UHGV virus genome: UHGV-1366171
DNA from: a virus
Length of the DNA: 64,000 nucleotides
Direction: 5' to 3' (one strand)
Below, piece after piece: positions 4,658 through 50,467 of the stretch (positions are counted from its first letter, which is position 1; the number at the start of each line of letters is the position of its first letter). The position numbers and the translations under genes were made by a program. The notes below the pieces were generated by a model that was not told the origin of the DNA, did not search any database, and saw only the letters and a list, made by a program, of their open reading frames with translations.

Positions 4658-4873
4658 ATGTTGAATAACACAATTCCGAGAATTTGCATAGCTGCATGTA
4701 GAGTAAATGCAGGTCTTAGCCAGAGAGAATTTGCTGAGAAAATAGGAGTTTCGCTTGCGACAATTACAAATTGGGAAAGTGGTAAAACTGAGCCTGATTT
4801 AAGTGAGTTACGAGCAATCAGCAATCTTTCAGGTATCCCTATGGACTTTATTTTTGTGCAAAGAGAATCCTAA
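4658..4873 (+). CDS. Cro-like XRE-family HTH regulator
   Basis: 71 aa; LSQREFAEKIGVSLATITNWESGKTEPDLSEL is a canonical HTH_XRE; divergent from the S24 repressor. Confidence 0.75.
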   Translation: MLNNTIPRICIAACRVNAGLSQREFAEKIGVSLATITNWESGKTEPDLSELRAISNLSGIPMDFIFVQRES

Positions 4874-4900
4874 AAAATAGGATTAAAAGGAGAAGAACTA

Positions 4901-5263
4901 TTGCAATACCAAAAAGAAATAGCAGAGAAGTATTCAAAAGAAGAAATCTGCGAAATGCTTGACAACGTAAATGGATGGAGATGGGATGACAGGTTGGGAG
5001 AAAAGCCTTGTGAGGATTTTGATGACTTGCCAAGGTACAACATTCATTGGTGGCATAAGCTGATGAAAAGAAGAACAAAGAAACAGTATTTGCAACAAGT
5101 CCAATGGAATTTGCAGTCTTGTCTAACGGCAAAAGAATATTACCATCACCTCCACACTAAAAATCTCGGTTGCAGCGAAGAAAAATTTGAAGCATGGTGG
5201 AGAAGATGCCATATGGACGAAAAATTCTTAGGCTGCTACAAAGAGAGCAATGATGGCAACTAG
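4901..5263 (+). CDS. Hypothetical protein (TTG start), Trp/His-rich
   Basis: 120 aa ORF, RBS AAAGGAG 8 nt upstream of TTG. Confidence 0.35.
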   Translation: MQYQKEIAEKYSKEEICEMLDNVNGWRWDDRLGEKPCEDFDDLPRYNIHWWHKLMKRRTKKQYLQQVQWNLQSCLTAKEYYHHLHTKNLGCSEEKFEAWWRRCHMDEKFLGCYKESNDGN

Positions 5264-5557
5264 GGTAGTAATACAGTATGGTATCAAGAACTGCCAGAAC
5301 TTTTCTTGCTTATCATCTACATAACCTTGCCCGTTAAGGTTGATTTCGTATCCGTCATATATATCGGAATTAAAATCCCCTTTCACGCCAGACGAATGCG
5401 GCTGGATATAGCCAAGAGTACATAAATGTTGCGTGTATTCATTGATCTCATGTTCAAAGTTGGTATTTGTTTTAAGAACACCGTTGATTTCAGAATAGGT
5501 TAAAAAAGGAACTTTGGATAATTTTTTAAGTAGCTTATAAGATTTTTTATCTAACAT
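5228..5557 (-). CDS. Hypothetical protein with C-terminal transmembrane segment
   Basis: 109 aa; ends in the hydrophobic stretch FLIPYCITTLVAIIALFVAA; the only convincing minus-strand ORF in this block. Confidence 0.35.
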   Translation of the reverse strand: MLDKKSYKLLKKLSKVPFLTYSEINGVLKTNTNFEHEINEYTQHLCTLGYIQPHSSGVKGDFNSDIYDGYEINLNGQGYVDDKQEKFWQFLIPYCITTLVAIIALFVAA

Positions 5558-37724: not shown

Positions 37725-38178
37725 TTTATCAAATAAATATTTCAGAACTGAGTCCGATGAACAGAGTAATAGGCTATTGAGAATTGCAGTAGCGCAAGGC
37801 TATCATCTTCCGAAAGGCATTGCCGCTTTAATTGGAAACCGAATTTTTAAATTCACAGGCTTTCCATATAAGGCGGTATCATTTCCAGAGAATATATCGG
37901 CAAATGAAGCAGTTATTGACTATGCAGACGCATTCGGTGATGAAGATAGGGAACTCAAAGAGATTTTAGATCGTTCAACTAGATTCTGTCGAGCGCATGG
38001 GTATAGTATACTTAGAATTTATGCAGATGAAAATGACAATGAGTATTCCGGTTCCGCTTTTGCGAAAACAGTTGATGGAGGTAACATTAAGACTGAAACA
38101 CGGCTTCCTAAACCAAGAAAAGTTACTCTGGAAGAAATTGAACAGCGATTCGGCTGTCCTATCGAAATAGTGTCATAA
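37717..38178 (+). CDS. Hypothetical protein
   Basis: Start at ATGATTGATTTATC with RBS GGAGGAAG, overlapping the recombinase end. Confidence 0.35.
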   Translation: MIDLSNKYFRTESDEQSNRLLRIAVAQGYHLPKGIAALIGNRIFKFTGFPYKAVSFPENISANEAVIDYADAFGDEDRELKEILDRSTRFCRAHGYSILRIYADENDNEYSGSAFAKTVDGGNIKTETRLPKPRKVTLEEIEQRFGCPIEIVS

Positions 38179-38450
38179 AATTTTACCACAATTTTCGCCT
38201 ACCGGCAAACACATCAGATAAATTCTAATTCACTTACAAAAGATAAAGCCCATTCGGGTGAATAATTCCACAAAAGATAAAATCGGGCAATCCGAAAAAA
38301 TTCCAAAAACAAAAAACGAGTTACGTCAACCGCAATTTTGGATATGACCCCTAATCATAAAACCTATGGCGTAATGTATTATGTTTCCTGAACTGCAATC
38401 TATTAAGCGTATAATTTGGGATTATAAAAGCGAAAAAACAGGAAATGTTT

Positions 38451-38523
38451 GGGAATATAGCTCAGCCAGGAGAGCACATGACTGTTAATCATGTTGTCGA
38501 AGGTTCAAGTCCTTCTGTTCCCG
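38451..38523 (+). tRNA. tRNA-Asn (anticodon GTT)
   Basis: Manual fold: acceptor GGGAATA/TGTTCCC, D-arm GCTC-AGCCAGGA-GAGC, anticodon stem CATGA/TCATG with loop CTGTTAA, T-arm GAAGG-TTCAAGT-CCTTC, discriminator G. Confidence 0.8.
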
Positions 38524-38870
38524 TTTTGGTTCTCATACAGCAGAATGAAGATGTGTCATTGGTTCAAGTCCAATCATTCCTGAAATGGAATGTCGCCCAG
38601 CTGGTAGGGCAATCTATTTATATTTTGAGAACTGTAAAAAACAGAGGTACGCAGCAACAGCAATGACTTAATGGCAAATGATTTGTATGCAAAACAAAGA
38701 AAATACGGTTCGATTCCGTGAAATATGCGTACTGTAAAAACAACTAAAAACCTATGTAACGCCAAACAGCAATTTATTCGCTTAAAAAAGCATATTGGTT
38801 CAACTCCAATCGTATCCGTGGAGGATATGCCCTAGTGGTCAAGGGAAATTGGCGTAATGAAAGGAGATTT
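38524..38870 (+). ncRNA. Array of partial tRNA-like modules (candidate Y-RNA-like / YrlA-like RNA) between tRNA-Asn and the Ro60-like gene
   Basis: No ORF on either strand. Contains a T-arm CATTGGTTCAAGTCCAATCATTCC (38555-38580), a D-arm-like GTCGCCCAGCTGGTAGGGCA (38591-38610), T-arms ACGGTTCGATTCCGT (38716-38730) and ATTGGTTCAACTCCAAT (38794-38810), and a repeated ACTGTAAAAA(A)CA. Confidence 0.4.
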
Positions 38871-38872
38871 TT

Positions 38873-40327
38873 ATGAATTTTTCAGATGTAATGAGAGAAG
38901 AAAGCAAGTGGACAAAGACCGAGAACGGAGCAGACGCAAAGAATACTACGGATTCTGCTTTGCTGGATATGTTTGCGACTATCGGTGCCATGCGTACCAG
39001 ATCAGAGGATGAGATTGTCAAGAAATTTGAGCTGGCATTTCAGGAAGACTCGTTAGGCGCTATGCGTTGCCTGTTCTATGCCAGAGACATTCATGGAGGT
39101 TTAGGCGAGCGCCGTGTGTTCCGTGTTCTTTTGACATACATAGCAAATAAGCATACAGAAGAATTAAGAAAGAACATAGATAAAATACCAGAATACGGAC
39201 GCTGGGACGACGTTTATTCTCTCGTCGGAACGAAATTAGAGGATAATATGTGGGATGATGTAAAGTATCAACTTTTAAAAGATAAAGTATTGATGAAGAA
39301 TGAAGAGTCGTCTTCCCTTCTCGCTAAATGGCTCAAAAAGGCTGATGCTTCTAGCCCGAACACTCGGAAACTGGGAATTTATACGGCAAAGAAGTTAGGA
39401 ATGTCCGTATATGACTATAAACGTCTTTGTAATCGCCTGAGAAAGCATATTGATGTTGTGGAGCAGCGCATGTCGGCCCGCCAGTGGGATACCATTAATT
39501 ATCCGGCGGTTCCATCCAGGGCAATGATGAATTACCGAAAGGCATTTGCTCGTCACGATCAGGAACGTTTTGAAGAATATATAAACAAAGTTTCCTCTGG
39601 CGAACAGAAAATCAATGCAGCCACTCTTTATCCGTATGACATTGTTGAGAAAATTTTGTATCACAGTGAGAATAGCAAGGTTCTGGAGGCTCAATGGGAT
39701 AATCTGCCAAACTACGTTGATGGAGATGTAAACGCAGTGGTTATGGCGGATGTGTCAGGCTCCATGTATGGCAGACCGATGGCAACCTCTATTGGACTGG
39801 CAATGTACTTCGCAGAGCGAAACAAAGGTGCATACCATAATCTGTTTATGACATTCTCTGGTCGCCCGAAGTTCGTGGAGATAAAAGGAAATACCATAAC
39901 TCAAAAAATCAACTTCATTTCAAGAGCAAGTTGGCAGATGAATACAGACCTTGAAGCTGCCCTGATGAAGATTCTGGATGTGGCGATTGAAAATCATTGT
40001 TCACAGGAAGAAATGCCGAAATCTCTCATTATCATTTCAGATATGGAGATTGATTGCTGCACAAACCAGAAACATAGAGAGAATTTCTACGATTATGTTT
40101 CCAGAGTATATAAGGAACATGGGTATAAAATCCCGAATGTAGTTTTCTGGAATGTTAATAGCAGGCATGATGTATTTCTGGCAGATAAGAACCGAAAGGG
40201 TGTGCAGCTTGTTTCTGGACAGTCCGTAAGCACATTTAAAAACCTGATCGGTTGCGTGGATAAGACACCGGTTGAAATGATGTATTCCGTCCTGAACAGT
40301 GACCGCTATCAGGCGATTCAGATTTGA
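38873..40327 (+). CDS. Ro60/TROVE-like protein with C-terminal von Willebrand A domain (DUF2828-like phage Ro homologue)
   Basis: About 280 aa alpha-helical N-terminal region; then a vWA with MIDAS motif AVVMADVSGSMYG ... SLIIISDMEID; position and architecture match bacterial/phage Rsr-like proteins that sit next to tRNA-like Y RNAs. Confidence 0.55.
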   Translation: MNFSDVMREESKWTKTENGADAKNTTDSALLDMFATIGAMRTRSEDEIVKKFELAFQEDSLGAMRCLFYARDIHGGLGERRVFRVLLTYIANKHTEELRKNIDKIPEYGRWDDVYSLVGTKLEDNMWDDVKYQLLKDKVLMKNEESSSLLAKWLKKADASSPNTRKLGIYTAKKLGMSVYDYKRLCNRLRKHIDVVEQRMSARQWDTINYPAVPSRAMMNYRKAFARHDQERFEEYINKVSSGEQKINAATLYPYDIVEKILYHSENSKVLEAQWDNLPNYVDGDVNAVVMADVSGSMYGRPMATSIGLAMYFAERNKGAYHNLFMTFSGRPKFVEIKGNTITQKINFISRASWQMNTDLEAALMKILDVAIENHCSQEEMPKSLIIISDMEIDCCTNQKHRENFYDYVSRVYKEHGYKIPNVVFWNVNSRHDVFLADKNRKGVQLVSGQSVSTFKNLIGCVDKTPVEMMYSVLNSDRYQAIQI

Positions 40328-44078: not shown

Positions 44079-44167
44079 TTGGGCTATCGCCAAGCGGTTA
44101 AGGCACCGGGCTTTGACCCCGGAAGAGAAGGAACGCTCTTTACGCTGGTTCGAATCCAGCTAGCCCA
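44079..44167 (+). tRNA. Class II (long variable arm) tRNA with apparent anticodon UUG; identity ambiguous (Ser/Leu-type body, Gln anticodon)
   Basis: Acceptor TGGGCTA/TAGCCCA, D GCC-AAGCGGTTAA-GGC, anticodon stem CCGGG/CCCGG with loop CTTTGAC, 21-nt variable arm, T-arm GCTGG-TTCGAAT-CCAGC, discriminator G. Confidence 0.5.
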
Positions 44168-44390
44168 GTTGGTTTCTGATTTTGGCATAGAAACTTTCTC
44201 CACCACCTACGGCGCAAGGCTGTGACAAAAGGAGATTCAAATGCTCCGGGTGGTTTTGTCCGACTACTGTTTGAGGACGTAAAATAAAAGAACAGCGTGT
44301 AGATTGGCGGTAAGGCGATACGATTCTAAATACCGCATGGTGCCTAAAGCAGCACGATAAATAATGCAAAAACGGGAGAAATCCCGTTAC

Positions 44391-44464
44391 GGATCATTAG
44401 CTCAGATGGTGAGAGCCGTTGCCTCATAAGCAGAAGGTCGTAGGTTCGAGTCCTACATGATCCA
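44391..44464 (+). tRNA. tRNA-Met (or Ile-lysidine), anticodon CAT
   Basis: Acceptor GGATCAT/ATGATCC, D GCTC-AGATGGTGA-GAGC, anticodon loop CTCATAA, T-arm GTAGG-TTCGAGT-CCTAC. Confidence 0.7.
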
Positions 44465-44523
44465 TTCCGCCATAGCTAGTACCCTTTGGCTGTCAGGTAC
44501 GGCAGCGGCTATGGTAGGAACCA

Positions 44524-44607
44524 CGAGACGTAGCTAAATTGGCAGAGCACTGAAAGCCGGATACAACTATGTACAGAAGACGGCGGTTCGAATCCGCCCG
44601 TCTCGAT
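44524..44607 (+). tRNA. tRNA-like gene, 84 nt, with good acceptor and T-arm but unresolved anticodon arm
   Basis: Acceptor CGAGACG/CGTCTCG and T-arm GGCGG-TTCGAAT-CCGCC are perfect; the 32 nt between D-arm and T-arm cannot be folded into a standard anticodon arm. Confidence 0.35.
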
Positions 44608-44801
44608 TTTACCACTTAGCAGGATGGGTATACCTGCTACGAAATCCTGTGAAAAAACTTTTCTAGAGAGATAAGACCAAAGGTCGTGAGGAGCAGTAGT
44701 CGGTGATTCTGGAAGATTCCCGGAAGTATGAGATGCAAAACGCCGTAAGTCTGTGGTACCTGCGACACGTTAATTGCATGGTGGTTTTATAAGGGAATAC
44801 G

Positions 44802-44874
44802 CCGATATAGTTCAATGGTAGAACGCTACACTTGTAATGTAGATGCTATTGGTTCGAGTCCGATTATCGGCTTT
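44802..44874 (+). tRNA. tRNA-Thr (anticodon TGT)
   Basis: Acceptor GCCGATA/TATCGGC, D AGTTCAATGGTAGAAC, anticodon stem CTACA/TGTAG with loop CTTGTAA, T-arm ATTGG-TTCGAGT-CCGAT. Confidence 0.75.
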
Positions 44875-45362
44875 CGTATGGAGACTTGTGCAGATACCAA
44901 TTCGCGGAATGGCAAACAGAAACTAGTGCTCTATACGTAAATTACAGCAATTCAGATGGCCGGTACATCGGCGGCGCAATAAGCCGTGAATGGTTGCTGA
45001 TAAGACTGAGATCCAGGAACTAAGGCGCGTATAATGTTGCCTGGAGGGAAAATATCAAATGGGTTTGGCCACCAGGAGATATGTTTTTCGGTAAAGTGCG
45101 GGGGTATTTTATCATGCTCAGTCTTTAATCTATCTGCCAAGTGCAGAAAAGGAATCCGGTTTTCGTATGACGATTACTGGTTTTAGCTCATGTACCAAGT
45201 GCACAAGGAGCATTCGACGCAGATGATGATAAAATATGCGTTTGAGGTGAAAATCAACCTATGCAGTCTGCGGATTGCATAACCGTGATAGGCGATATTA
45301 TATACCGGCATCGTTTGAAAAGAAATCCGAGTAAAAGCCAACTTTTCTTACCTTGTCGGTTC

Positions 45363-45438
45363 CGGGATGTAGCGTAGTTTGGTAACGCGCCTAATTTGGG
45401 ATTAGGAGATCGTCGGTTCAAATCCGGCCATTCCGGTT
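45363..45438 (+). tRNA. tRNA-Pro (anticodon TGG)
   Basis: Acceptor CGGGATG/CATTCCG (one GU pair), anticodon stem CCTAA/TTAGG with loop TTTGGGA, T-arm GTCGG-TTCAAAT-CCGGC. Confidence 0.7.
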
Positions 45439-47099: not shown

Positions 47100-48757
47100 A
47101 TTATATCATATCTTTCAACTACTTGCAATTCAGTTTTAAATATGATATACTACAAGCAGTTGAAAGTAGTATTCTAAAAGGAATGTGGTTTAATGAATGA
47201 AGAAGATAAGGGAGACCAAGAAAGGATGCTAAAGAGTTACAAGACGGAAATCAATCCAACTATGGAACAAATACATAAAATCAATAAAACAATTGGCACT
47301 TGCCGTTTTGTATACAACTTTTATCTTGCCCGCAACAAAGAAGTTTATGAAAAAGAGAAGAAATTTGTATCTGGAATGGAGTTCTCAAAATGGCTAAATA
47401 ATGTTTATTTAAAAGAGAATCCAGAGTATGTATGGATAAAAGAGGTTAGCACAAAATCGGTAAAACAAAGCATTATGAATTCCGAAAGATCTTTTAAGAG
47501 ATTCTTCAAAGGACAGTCCGGTTTTCCTAAATTCAAGAAGAAAGGAAAATCGGATGTAAAAATGTATTTTATGAAAACAAATTCTCAGACAATAATAACA
47601 TGCGAAAGACACCGAATCAAAATATCGACACTCGGATGGGTTAGATTAAAAGAAAAGGGATATATTCCTTGGGATTCAAATACTTACATTATCAAGAGTG
47701 GTACTGTTTCTTGTAGAGCTGGACGATATTATGTATCAGTCTTGGTTGAGCAACCAGAAAGAGAAAGACTACAATTACAAGATTTTGGATTTGGAATTGA
47801 CCTTGGTGTTAAAAATTTTGCGGTTATAAGCAATGGGCTTGTAAAGAAAAACATCAATAAAACAAATAAGGTAAAAAAATTAGAAAAACAACTAAAACGA
47901 GAACAACGGTGTCTTTCTAGGAAATACGAAAGTTTAAAGAAGAATAATAAGAAAGGAGAGTCTTCCAGAGAAAATATTCAAAAACAAATATTAAAGGTGA
48001 AAAGGCTTTATTGCAGGATAGACAATATCCGCACTGACTACATCAATAAAACAATAGCTGAGATTGTGAAAACCAAACCATCTTATATCGCTGTTGAAGA
48101 TTTGAATGTATCAGGTATGATGAAGAACAGGCATCTTTCGAAGGCTGTTGCATCACAAAAATTTTATGAATTTAGAGTGAAATTGGAAGCAAAATGCAAA
48201 GAATATGGAATTGAATTGAGAATTGTAGACAGATGGTATCCATCCAGTAAACTTTGCCATGAATGTGGTTGTATCAGGAAAGACTTAAAACTTTCTGACA
48301 GAGAATATGTGTGCGAATGTGGATATCATGCAGATAGAGATTATAATGCAAGTCTTAATTTAAGAGATGCCACATCCTACAAAGTAGCATAAACAAGCAT
48401 TTGCAGGTATGTACCGATGGCTAGTCGGGAATTGACGACTGTGGAGTGTACAAGAACTTGTGAGTAGTATCTGTATTTACTCAGGGCGAAAGCATATACA
48501 GAGAAGCAGTAAGAAATGTTCGCAAGAACTTTCAATATCTCGATATGGATATCTTTGTTCATATTTTGAGTAGCAGCCAAGCGTAAGCGGAGATTGAAAA
48601 ATTTTTATATTCACAGAATCGAGATGAAAAAATGTAAAACAAGCAAAATCTTCTATGTAAATAGAAATAGAAGTTAAGTAAAATAAGATGAAATAGTAAA
48701 ATGAGAGTCATTTGAGAGCCAAATTTCTTACTAAGTAGGGAAGGAGGCTCTTTTGTT
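47100..48757 (+). mobile_element. IS200/IS605-family TnpB-only element (IS1341-like) with downstream omega-RNA/right-end region
   Basis: TnpB ORF with no TnpA; 365 bp structured non-coding tail at 48393-48757 before the terminase. Confidence 0.45.
47193..48392 (+). CDS. tnpB: TnpB (OrfB) RNA-guided nuclease-like transposase accessory protein
   Basis: N-terminal OrfB_IS605 region; RuvC-like GIDLGVKNFAVISNG...AVEDLNVSGM; C-terminal zinc finger CHECGC...CECG. Confidence 0.8.
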   Translation: MNEEDKGDQERMLKSYKTEINPTMEQIHKINKTIGTCRFVYNFYLARNKEVYEKEKKFVSGMEFSKWLNNVYLKENPEYVWIKEVSTKSVKQSIMNSERSFKRFFKGQSGFPKFKKKGKSDVKMYFMKTNSQTIITCERHRIKISTLGWVRLKEKGYIPWDSNTYIIKSGTVSCRAGRYYVSVLVEQPERERLQLQDFGFGIDLGVKNFAVISNGLVKKNINKTNKVKKLEKQLKREQRCLSRKYESLKKNNKKGESSRENIQKQILKVKRLYCRIDNIRTDYINKTIAEIVKTKPSYIAVEDLNVSGMMKNRHLSKAVASQKFYEFRVKLEAKCKEYGIELRIVDRWYPSSKLCHECGCIRKDLKLSDREYVCECGYHADRDYNASLNLRDATSYKVA

Positions 48758-50467
48758 TTGCGAGAAGGAACGCTTGAATGGTACAAAAAAATTTTTTCGG
48801 AAATCTTAAAAGACGACATGACACAATACCAAAACCAAATAGATAGCTGGCAGCTTCTTTTGAATATGAAGCAAGATTTAGGTTTTGAGGATAAAGAAAT
48901 TCGTGATTATGCTATGAAGATCAGCCAGTACACACACAAGATGGCTGACTATGTAGCAGGGCAGACGGGAAGCGGAAAGTTTAATGATTTGTACTATAAA
49001 TTGTTATTGTTGGAAGCTCAAAATTATCAAGTGGATAGCGGACTTCTATATCTGGAAAAAAATAGAGTTCCCAAGGAACGATTTTATGAGCCGCGCCGAG
49101 AGGTTTTTATAAAGCACCAAATTATCCAGTCATTACAGGATTTGATGGATGATAAACTTGATATTTTTGCTTTGAGCGTTCCACCGGGTTGTGGTAAATC
49201 AACTCTGGAAGATTTTTTCTTATCCCTTGTTGGTGGATGGTTCCCAAATGATTTTAACCTATCCTCAGCGCATAGTAGCATTTTGACCCATTCCCTTTAT
49301 GATGGCGTATTGGAAATTATAAATGACCCGGTAGAGTATACATGGCATGAAATATTTCCTAATGTAAAGCTGACTGGAACAAATGCTAAGGAAACCACAG
49401 TAAACCTCGAAAGGAATGGGCGATTTAAAACATGGACTTTTCGTTCCATAGATGGTTCGTTGACGGGAGCCACAAGATGTAATCGTTTTTTGACAGCAGA
49501 TGACTTGGTATCTGGAATTGAAGAAGCACTGAACAAGTCACGCCTGGAAACACTTTGGACAAAGGTTGTGAATGATCTTCGTTCCAGACGACTTGAAGGG
49601 TGTAAAGAAATCTATATTGCCACAAGATGGTCTGTCCATGACCCGATTGGAAAACTACAACAGCTATATGAAGGAAATCCCAAAGCCAGATTTATTGCGG
49701 TTCCGGCTTTGAACGAAGATGGCGAGAGTAACTTCATGTTTGCGGTGAATGGATTTTCAAAGAAATACTTCATGGACGCTAAGGAATCTATGGATGATCT
49801 ATCCTTTAAATGCCTGTATCAGCAACAGCCGATTGAGCGAGAGGGATTACTATTTCCTACAGATGAACTGCGCCGCTTTTTCTTCAATCGGGAGCAAGTA
49901 CCGGAAAAGCAGACAGAGTTTATTATTATGCCAGAGCGGACGCCTGATGCTATATGGGCGGTGTGCGATACAAAGGATACAGGAGCGGATTTTGAATCTT
50001 TACCGATTGCATATCAATTTGGAGAAGATTTTTTTATACCGGATGTAGTATTTGATGACACAACAGATTATGACACATTGGATATGAAATCCGCTAATAT
50101 TTTGATTCGACACAATCCCCATAAGATAAGGTTTGAATCAAATAGTGCAGGAGGCAGAGTCGCGCATAATGTTCAAAAATTGATAGATGGAAAATGTCGA
50201 GCACAGATCGAGCCTGAGAGAACACAAGCGAACAAAGAAACCAAAATATTAGTCAATTCTGATTGGATTAAAAAACACTGTATATTTTTAGACCCAAGTT
50301 TATATACGCCAAAATCAGACTATGGTTTGTTCATGGAAAATGTGGTTACATATACAGTCAAAGTTAAGCCGCCACATGATGATGGGCCAGACTCTCTGGC
50401 AATGCTTGCAGAATATGTAGCAAGGCCAGTGCAAAAACCAACAACAATAATCAATAGTCCGATTTGA
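48758..50467 (+). CDS. terL: Terminase large subunit
   Basis: Walker A-like LSVPPGCGKST; nuclease-domain acidic residues; 569 aa, immediately upstream of the portal. Confidence 0.7.
   Translation: MREGTLEWYKKIFSEILKDDMTQYQNQIDSWQLLLNMKQDLGFEDKEIRDYAMKISQYTHKMADYVAGQTGSGKFNDLYYKLLLLEAQNYQVDSGLLYLEKNRVPKERFYEPRREVFIKHQIIQSLQDLMDDKLDIFALSVPPGCGKSTLEDFFLSLVGGWFPNDFNLSSAHSSILTHSLYDGVLEIINDPVEYTWHEIFPNVKLTGTNAKETTVNLERNGRFKTWTFRSIDGSLTGATRCNRFLTADDLVSGIEEALNKSRLETLWTKVVNDLRSRRLEGCKEIYIATRWSVHDPIGKLQQLYEGNPKARFIAVPALNEDGESNFMFAVNGFSKKYFMDAKESMDDLSFKCLYQQQPIEREGLLFPTDELRRFFFNREQVPEKQTEFIIMPERTPDAIWAVCDTKDTGADFESLPIAYQFGEDFFIPDVVFDDTTDYDTLDMKSANILIRHNPHKIRFESNSAGGRVAHNVQKLIDGKCRAQIEPERTQANKETKILVNSDWIKKHCIFLDPSLYTPKSDYGLFMENVVTYTVKVKPPHDDGPDSLAMLAEYVARPVQKPTTIINSPI

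Follow-up and report, generated by a model that had tools for sequence, protein, structure and literature searches.

The 64-kb window analysed here (UHGV-1366171; all coordinates are window positions on the + strand) belongs to a prophage found in the gut bacterium Blautia hydrogenotrophica, and contains a 690-nt stretch without protein-coding genes, in which a tRNA-Asn is encoded, directly ahead of a gene for a 484-aa protein with a C-terminal von Willebrand factor A (vWA) domain. This arrangement raises the question of what the gene-free stretch encodes and whether it belongs with the protein. The initial annotation had proposed a Ro60/Rsr-type protein (TROVE plus vWA) beside a candidate Y RNA locus composed of the tRNA and a string of isolated tRNA pieces. 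With a probability that we put at about 0.78, the locus represents a phage-borne Ro60/Y RNA-type ribonucleoprotein of a divergent class, in which an array of five structured RNA units accompanies a protein with a predicted Ro60 fold.

By sequence, the 484-aa protein belongs to the DUF2828/DUF7788 family and not to TROVE, and its predicted structure has the Ro60 fold, a ring of helical repeats together with a vWA domain and its MIDAS, the metal ion-dependent adhesion site. It matched the Pfam families DUF2828 (141.5 bits, cut-off 29) and DUF7788 (142.5 bits, cut-off 27.1), in agreement with the DUF2828 plus vWA composition expected initially; at E ≤ 1, the only further Pfam matches were a faint, generic one to VWA_2 and one to DUF4363, and TROVE (PF05731) was absent. 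The protein falls in PHROG 850, annotated as 'RNA-binding protein' (E = 7e-154). Searches of the PDB with the single sequence (phmmer) and with a 70-sequence profile retrieved generic vWA domains and no Ro60, so that the link to Ro60 required a comparison of folds. In the predicted structure (predicted local distance difference test score 93.9, predicted template modelling score 0.92) an alpha-helical repeat ring is followed by the vWA domain, and the five best Foldseek matches, all aligned over the full length, are Ro60 structures of phage phiLo, Xenopus and human, with phiLo Ro60 ranking first (E = 6e-8; template modelling score 0.56-0.58). The MIDAS residues D293, S295, S297, T358 and D390 are invariant in the 70-sequence alignment. 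The architecture proposed initially thus stands with respect to the fold and the MIDAS, and fails with respect to TROVE as a sequence family. The family comprises 6,690 clusters at 50% identity and, as found by tblastn, is present in 710 phage records, including phages of Escherichia, Salmonella, Mycobacterium, Listeria, Staphylococcus, Campylobacter, Vibrio and Bacillus; the mycobacteriophage homologues carry the annotation 'Ro-like RNA binding protein'.

In the gene-free stretch, no credible open reading frame (ORF) is listed from 38178, where an ORF ends, to the ATG at 38873. The stretch holds, in place of loose tRNA pieces, the tRNA-Asn and five Y RNA-like units (U1 to U5), all located on the gene strand within approximately 550 nt ahead of the gene (Table 1). 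Every unit is closed by a stem of 7-9 bp, whose 5' strand is followed after 1-4 nt by the motif C(A/C/U)GCA(A/G), present in the forms AUACAGCAG, ACAGCAA, ACUGCAA and ACCGCAA, and whose 3' strand is followed by UG in four units and by AA in one. The bodies enclosed by these stems differ: U3 and U5 carry a tRNA elbow in the permuted order of YrlA RNAs, U4 a T arm within a body of normal order, and U1 an anticodon arm. An automatic scan for the motif positioned after a strand having a downstream complement recovered exactly these five units, and the minimum free energy (MFE) fold of each closes the scanned stem. U2 ends 2 nt ahead of the tRNA-Asn and U5 abuts the ribosome-binding site, with the unit ends lying 14-497 nt ahead of the start codon. 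As standard tRNAs the units are not recognized, since ARAGORN and the Rfam tRNA gathering score call only the tRNA-Asn in 38180-38872; U4 showed a partial Rfam tRNA match (19.7 bits, 38664-38720, model positions 8-63).

Table 1. The RNA array and the gene for the Ro60-like protein in the window (stems are given as 5' strand/3' strand).
Feature	Position	Strand	Closing stem	Motif	Body or description	Tail
U1	38320-38376	+	UUACGUCA/UGGCGUAA	A-CCGCAA	mimics anticodon arm AUGA-CCCCUAA-UCAU	
U2	38383-38448	+	UUUCCUG/CAGGAAA	A-CUGCAA	plain inner hairpin UAUAAU-UUGGG-AUUAUA	UGU
tRNA-Asn(GTT)	38451-38523	+			standard cloverleaf inside the array; ARAGORN, Rfam tRNA 69.2 bits	
U3, YrlA-like	38527-38635	+	GGUUCUCA/UGAGAACU	AUA-CAGCAG	anticodon-stem-like helix AGAU/AUCU; T arm 38558-38574; closed acceptor-like hairpin 38575-38591; D arm 38594-38609	UGU
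U4	38646-38735	+	GGUACGCA/UGCGUACU	CAGCAACAGCAA (doubled)	tRNA-like in normal order: weak D arm; anticodon-like hairpin UUUGU-AUGCAAA-ACAAA; T arm 38705-38719	UGU
U5, second YrlA-like unit	38757-38859	+	ACGCCAA/UUGGCGU	A-CAGCAA	hairpin GCUU-AAAA-AAGC; T arm 38794-38810; acceptor-like hairpin 38811-38827; D arm 38829-38846	AAUG
Ribosome-binding site	38860-38866	+			AAAGGAG, 6 nt ahead of the ATG, read from the sequence	
Ro60-like protein ORF, 484 aa	38873-40327	+			DUF2828 helical-repeat N-terminus and DUF7788 vWA/MIDAS C-terminus	

The relationship of the array with YrlA RNAs is apparent from the unit following the tRNA. In a permissive scan of 38100-38950, the Rfam YrlA family (RF02553) matched 38528-38636 over the full model (positions 1-114) with 43.3 bits (E = 3.7e-8; gathering score 69); relatives scored 41.4, 37.4, 31.2 and 36.4 bits. 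Its closing stem surrounds a T arm, a closed acceptor-like hairpin and a D arm, which is the YrlA order. The motif GNCGAAN0-1G, which canonical YrlA RNAs have on the 5' side of the stem that binds Ro60 (PMC4201824), is not carried by the window units. Two covariance models were used in addition, R1 describing the core (T arm, hairpin and D arm) and R3 derived from an alignment of 17 full-length YrlA-like units. U3, a training sequence of both, scored 91.7 bits (R1) and 98.7 bits (R3). At E ≤ 0.01, R3 matched the 64-kb window at two positions and nowhere else: 38528-38636, on which it had been trained, and 38756-38861, corresponding to U5, which was outside the training set (37.6 bits, E = 3.3e-6; R1, 18.2 bits). 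The tRNA-like array therefore exceeds chance expectation.

With these results the initial description of the RNA side can be revised. The tRNA-Asn and the T arms, noted at 38555, 38716 and 38794, were recovered in U3, U4 and U5, as was the D arm noted at 38591, all close to the positions first given; a second D arm, in U5, had been overlooked. The repeat ACUGUAAAAA is indeed present in two copies, ACTGTAAAAA(A)CA at 38631 and 38731, and corresponds to the end of the closing-stem 3' strand plus the tail UGUAAAAA of U3 and U4. The supposedly isolated pieces exist as parts of complete, stem-closed units sharing the motif, and the modules, all placed after the tRNA initially, are five in number with U1 and U2 upstream of it. 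The kinship with YrlA holds for the full-model match, and is limited by a score below the gathering threshold and by ACAGCAA in place of GNCGAA. None of the three observations named beforehand as speaking against the annotation (a protein with no TROVE or DUF2828 similarity, no covariance-model match and no stable tRNA-like fold beyond the tRNA-Asn) was made.

To place the window in a wider context, 167 loci encoding relatives of the protein were collected from viral contigs and genomes and reduced to 100 clusters at 85% protein identity. Common to all units, regardless of their body, is a 5' stem strand followed by about three bases and CAGCAA (family consensus NNA-CAGCAA), and further downstream the complementary 3' strand followed by G. 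Across the protein family, this stem-plus-motif element adjoins the gene and shares its strand. Counts of ACAGCAA in the 100 non-redundant loci were 293 for the gene strand and 48 for the opposite strand, with about 36 copies expected; 154 copies fall in the 500 nt ahead of the gene, and at least one copy is present in 95 of the 100 loci. In a fixed register, the 7-mer ending 3 nt ahead of CAGCAA is perfectly complemented by a sequence in the following 165 nt at 68% of 251 sites, compared with 17% when the downstream sequence was swapped between loci, and the base right after the complement is G in 149 of 171 cases. A flexible helix test gave a comparable result (at least seven pairs, 64% versus 16%; Mann-Whitney p = 1e-45). 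Compensatory changes were found in all seven stem pairs of 55 short units; since these rows were preselected for pairing, the cross-locus control serves as the independent test. The arrays typically have two to four units, with a maximum of 12, and no Rfam family covering the stem-plus-motif element was found. The module accompanies the gene in 93 of 101 scanned sequences, ranging from Lachnospiraceae prophages to mycobacteriophages, and the pairing of protein and RNA is a hallmark of the whole DUF2828 family and not specific to the prophage in the window.

This co-occurrence bears on whether protein and RNAs work together. An alternative explanation would be that they act independently, the protein as an anti-defence factor through protein contacts, for instance via its vWA/MIDAS face, and the RNAs as free decoys or as spare parts of tRNA clusters. 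The sole experimental datum for the family concerns gp130 (gene bas63_0130) of phage Bas63 (MZ501086.1), 35% identical to the window protein (E = 6e-87), which counters the Ppl defence system and whose Ro60-like fold has been remarked upon in the same 2024 preprint (10.1101/2024.10.10.617714). Plasmid-borne gp130 alone rescues T7 on a Ppl host (10.1101/2024.10.10.617714), from which it follows that at least the anti-Ppl activity requires no RNAs of the phage's own. Independent action would also agree with the frequent location of DUF2828 genes next to tRNA clusters (tRNAs are present in 99 of 168 scanned sequences, i.e. the 167 loci and the window), and with the presence of a 7-nt CU-NNN-AA hairpin loop, the signature of tRNA anticodon loops, in about one-fifth of the units (35 of 164; two in three rounds of shuffling). 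However, the sole element common to all units is not one of these tRNA parts but the stem plus CAGCAA, which tracks the gene, and the predicted fold of the protein is that of a dedicated Y RNA-binding ring. We consider independent action unlikely.

Cultured phages provide a second line of comparison. R2, a model based on metagenomic short units only, finds units adjoining the gene on the same strand in five of them: Staphylococcus phage SEP9, Listeria phage LP-124 and mycobacteriophage Rose5 (three units each), Bacillus phage 2S-4, and the Felixounavirus UAB_Phi87, with four units inside its tRNA cluster. One of the three Rose5 units is also a sub-threshold YrlA match (36.4 bits), and Rose5 contributed one training sequence to R3. 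Full-length YrlA-like units were detected with R3 in Bacillus phage 2S-4 (63.5 bits) and UAB_Phi87 (52.6 bits). Bas63 possesses four units, one of them YrlA-like (52.6 bits, E = 4e-12), in unannotated gaps of its tRNA cluster and distinct from the annotated tRNAs; they occupy approximately 82072-82141, 82239-82299, 82694-82764 and 82781-82909 of the record.

The position of these units argues against a purely cis-acting role, namely that of a structured 5' leader bound by the protein or a host factor and controlling the translation or stability of its own mRNA. Such a leader would be in line with the window and with most loci, where units are found within 500 nt upstream of the gene, and with U5 ending at the ribosome-binding site, a simple scan having revealed no terminator between array and gene. 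In SEP9, Rose5, UAB_Phi87 and Bas63, however, the units are placed downstream of the gene or between tRNA genes, where a 5' leader is impossible. A genuine tRNA within the array moreover implies processing into separate RNAs, and the bodies mimic tRNA elbows in the manner of YrlA RNAs, which are known to be stable. An exclusively cis-acting function is accordingly quite improbable.

Further features were observed near the gene in these phages. In Listeria phage LP-124 (L170, NC_047745.1), the DUF2828 gene has a match to ROOL RNA about 1 kb upstream (462-1013; 87.4 bits, slightly short of the gathering score, 99.1; E = 1e-16) and a gene for an RtcB-like tRNA-splicing ligase 1.3 kb downstream (4848-5500). 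In the Felixounavirus tRNA clusters, short 'hypothetical protein' genes on the opposite strand overlap Y-like units (L169:4355-4612, Phi87_08; L185:2949-3223, bas63_0137 and bas63_0138), and these three genes are probably mis-annotations.

The tRNA-like bodies were scrutinized through alignment and covariation. R1 matches were located almost exclusively on the gene strand; many of them represented tandem-tRNA junctions, which were identified with ARAGORN and set aside. Seventeen full-length YrlA-like units were aligned by sequence alone; the proteins encoded at their loci share 36-88% identity with that of the window. Their five helices are 94.9% paired versus 35-45% when the partners were slid, 24 of the 27 pairs are compensatory, and the covariation score is 0.77 versus 0.24 in shuffles; with compensatory changes in all five helices, the tRNA-like fold beyond the tRNA-Asn that had been suspected initially is supported. 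Searched against both strands of 649 kb (100 sequences), R3 gave 108 matches at E ≤ 0.01, every one on the gene strand; 91 of them, spread over 61 sequences, have no overlap with a tRNA call. The anticodon-arm mimic of the U1 type is likewise conserved across lineages (15 loci, 96.7% paired, compensatory changes in 9 of 14 pairs). Closer to the window, nine sister loci (84-88% protein identity) keep the order U1, U2, tRNA, U3, (U4), U5 and show compensatory changes in their closing stems. All of L001, L002 and L174-L180 retain U2, whose stem has compensatory changes in L175 and whose inner hairpin has them in L002; in U4, the T stem ACGG/CCGU is replaced by GUGG/CCGC in L001 and the closing stem by GGUACAC/GUGUACU in L179; and in U5, the D stem CCCU/AGGG is replaced by CCUU/AAGG in L002. 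The embedded tRNA is exchanged among these closely related prophages: of the ten arrays (the window, L001, L002 and L174-L180), seven carry Asn(GTT), two Tyr(GTA) and one Lys(TTT). That the tRNA-like pieces are decaying tRNA pseudogenes with an incidental YrlA match, as could be imagined given that phage tRNA clusters accumulate pseudo-tRNAs, that many R1 matches were tandem-tRNA junctions and that U4 resembles a degenerate tRNA of normal order, is effectively ruled out by the covariation of the permuted order inside its closing stem and by the strand-specific conservation of the non-tRNA motif ACAGCAA, neither of which would be preserved by decay.

Two variations on this theme were encountered. 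In six loci (L008, L118, L119, L115, L056 and L059; e.g. L008:1640-1700 and L118:2095-2130), tandem arrays contain a permuted variant in which the putative docking stem forms a local hairpin (e.g. GGAUCA-UGUUCG-UGAUCC) followed by NNA-CAGCAA and located between the D arm and the T arm; it looks like a tRNA-shaped RNA with the docking stem in place of the anticodon arm. Homologues with 41-43% identity are also present on contigs binned to archaea, in metagenome-assembled genomes of a Promethearchaeota (L158) and a Woesearchaeota (L159); in L158 a full-length YrlA-like unit (2251-2373, 52.4 bits) is found immediately upstream of the gene.

The Ro60/Y RNA-type ribonucleoprotein favoured here would function as follows. 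The array, the tRNA and probably the gene would be transcribed jointly and cut into RNAs of about 55-110 nt, as proposed by analogy with Deinococcus radiodurans, where a polycistronic Yrn2-tRNA-Yrn1 precursor is produced (PMC4201824). As a further precedent, YrlA is found on the same strand as Ro60 and no more than 4 kb away from it (PMC4201824), as are the window units from their gene. The unit RNAs are presumed to be expressed and bound by the protein. The stem plus ACAGCAA would be the docking site for the Ro-like ring, the counterpart of the GNCGAA-bearing stem of Y RNAs, and the tRNA-like body the effector end, which may recruit or occupy a host factor that reads tRNA shape; nucleases, enzymes of modification or repair and defence proteins would be examples. 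In this way the particle could protect phage RNA or tRNA function during infection. Several observations weigh against this interpretation. Homology of the protein to Ro60 is based on the predicted fold, sequence profiles giving no connection; the YrlA score of U3 lies below the Rfam gathering score; and the folding energies are modestly better than those of shuffled sequences (z -0.85 to -3.2, with U5 at -3.2), a range which makes folding energy by itself weak evidence here. The generic unit model R2 reaches no E ≤ 1 on the window's own units, which have divergent stems and long bodies, and the window units are defined by Rfam YrlA, R3, the helix and motif scan and the sister loci, without reliance on R2. 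Simple scans of the + strand revealed neither a convincing sigma-70 promoter upstream of the array nor an intrinsic terminator between array and gene, and the rescue of T7 by gp130 alone belongs to the same side of the balance.

A more far-reaching and tentative proposal, which we rate as possible although more probably wrong than right, is that DUF2828-type proteins and stem-plus-ACAGCAA RNAs constitute a distinct and very widespread class of phage ribonucleoprotein that serves as a modular anti-defence device, in which the docking module would present interchangeable tRNA parts as decoys or adaptors against tRNA-recognising host factors. Such parts would include the elbow, the T arm and an anticodon arm whose CU-NNN-AA loop imitates, for instance, that of a Lys, Asn, Tyr or Ser tRNA. 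tRNA-Asn, tRNA-Tyr and tRNA-Lys are among the targets of known anticodon nucleases, and the occurrence of the same three as embedded tRNAs would fit a role tied to tRNA cleavage.

The combination of Ro60 with YrlA RNA was described in 2014 for bacteria and for 22 phages, in a survey covering TROVE-annotated genomes only (Chen et al. 2014, PMC4201824), and a phage TROVE-type Ro60 with Y-like RNAs is likewise known; the variant of the system described here is new. Like bacterial Ro60 (Rsr) with YrlA (RF02553), it combines a ring-plus-vWA protein with RNAs encoded on the same strand within a few hundred nucleotides of the gene, more than one per locus, that have a long closing stem and a permuted tRNA-like domain of T arm, closed acceptor-like hairpin and D arm. 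Unlike it, the present system has no detectable TROVE sequence similarity, an ACAGCAA motif, arrays of up to 12 units that also include anticodon-arm mimics and plain hairpins, and an RNA score under the Rfam threshold. The Ro60 of Thermus phage phiLo, solved with Yrl1 and Yrl2 (PDB 9KOP and 9L5Y; PMC12135203), is also a phage-encoded protein of this fold with two Y-like RNAs directly upstream of its gene, but it was deposited as a TROVE-domain protein, the CGAA motif of its RNAs sits within a large internal bulge, no tRNA mimicry is described for them, and binding to the Y-like RNAs and to host polynucleotide phosphorylase (PNPase) was demonstrated in vitro (PMC12135203), whereas the window system is known from sequence and a structural model. 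At the rsr locus of D. radiodurans, Y RNAs, one of which has a tRNA-like module, and a true tRNA similarly stand beside the Ro60 gene, there in one polycistronic precursor (Yrn2-tRNA(Asp)-Yrn1); this locus differs as a chromosomal stress-response locus with a canonical Ro60, a metazoan-like binding helix and PNPase tethering. Bas63 gp130 is a direct homologue whose gene heads a tRNA cluster, with the units downstream of the gene instead of upstream as in the window. The authors of the preprint surmised that some of the annotated Bas63 tRNAs are Y RNAs (10.1101/2024.10.10.617714), in contrast to the four unannotated units found in the gaps between these tRNAs. Mycobacteriophage Rose5 gp53 has the same Pfam architecture, with the YrlA match and the three CAGCAA units beside its gene, but downstream of it, and its record annotates the protein only, RNA features being absent at the locus. 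A full-text search found no RNA-related paper on DUF2828 or DUF7788, and in the searchable literature no description was found of the ACAGCAA element, the multi-unit arrays, the anticodon-arm mimics or the units in Felix O1-type tRNA clusters.

The function of bacterial and phage Ro60/Y RNA particles is poorly understood, as is the reason for tRNA mimicry by Y RNAs. A large protein family located beside tRNA clusters is now marked by a defined RNA signature, which lends itself to searches, mutagenesis and pull-down experiments. One member has a phenotype (gp130 against Ppl), and tractable phages are at hand in Bas63 and its Felix O1-like kin, Listeria LP-124, Staphylococcus SEP9 and mycobacteriophage Rose5, so that what tRNA mimicry does in a Ro particle can be tested directly. 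The overlap of opposite-strand short 'hypothetical' genes with unit RNAs in Felix O1-type tRNA clusters also calls for a correction of the annotation.

As a prophage region, the window holds genes for an endolysin, an integrase, a DNA invertase, a transposase, a large terminase, a portal protein and a major head protein, and an identical copy of the 484-aa protein is found in B. hydrogenotrophica genomes. A megablast search of phage genomes with a 6-kb query gave zero matches, and the locus thus has no close cultured relative. Ahead of U1, the region 38230-38320 (+) is conserved in L001 and L002 and includes two small hairpins, GCCC-AUUC-GGGU and CGG-GCAAU-CCG, among A-rich runs; the array may have its promoter or leader here, although a consensus promoter was not found. 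A second, loosely spaced tRNA cluster at 44080-45436 (+) encodes Gln, Met, Thr and Pro tRNAs, the tRNA-Gln being unusually long (89-91 nt). A further Y-like unit was sought in this cluster and rejected, the sole ACAGCAA (44944) pairing with a downstream UUGCUG without the unit architecture. The cluster region also contains a tRNA-like element at 44524-44606, recognized by Rfam (48.7 bits) without an ARAGORN call, whose anticodon region is expanded and abnormal. Finally, a RAGATH-18 RNA (48438-48512, +; 62.2 bits, Rfam gathering score 44.9) is located between the genes for the transposase (47193-48392) and the large terminase (48758-50467).

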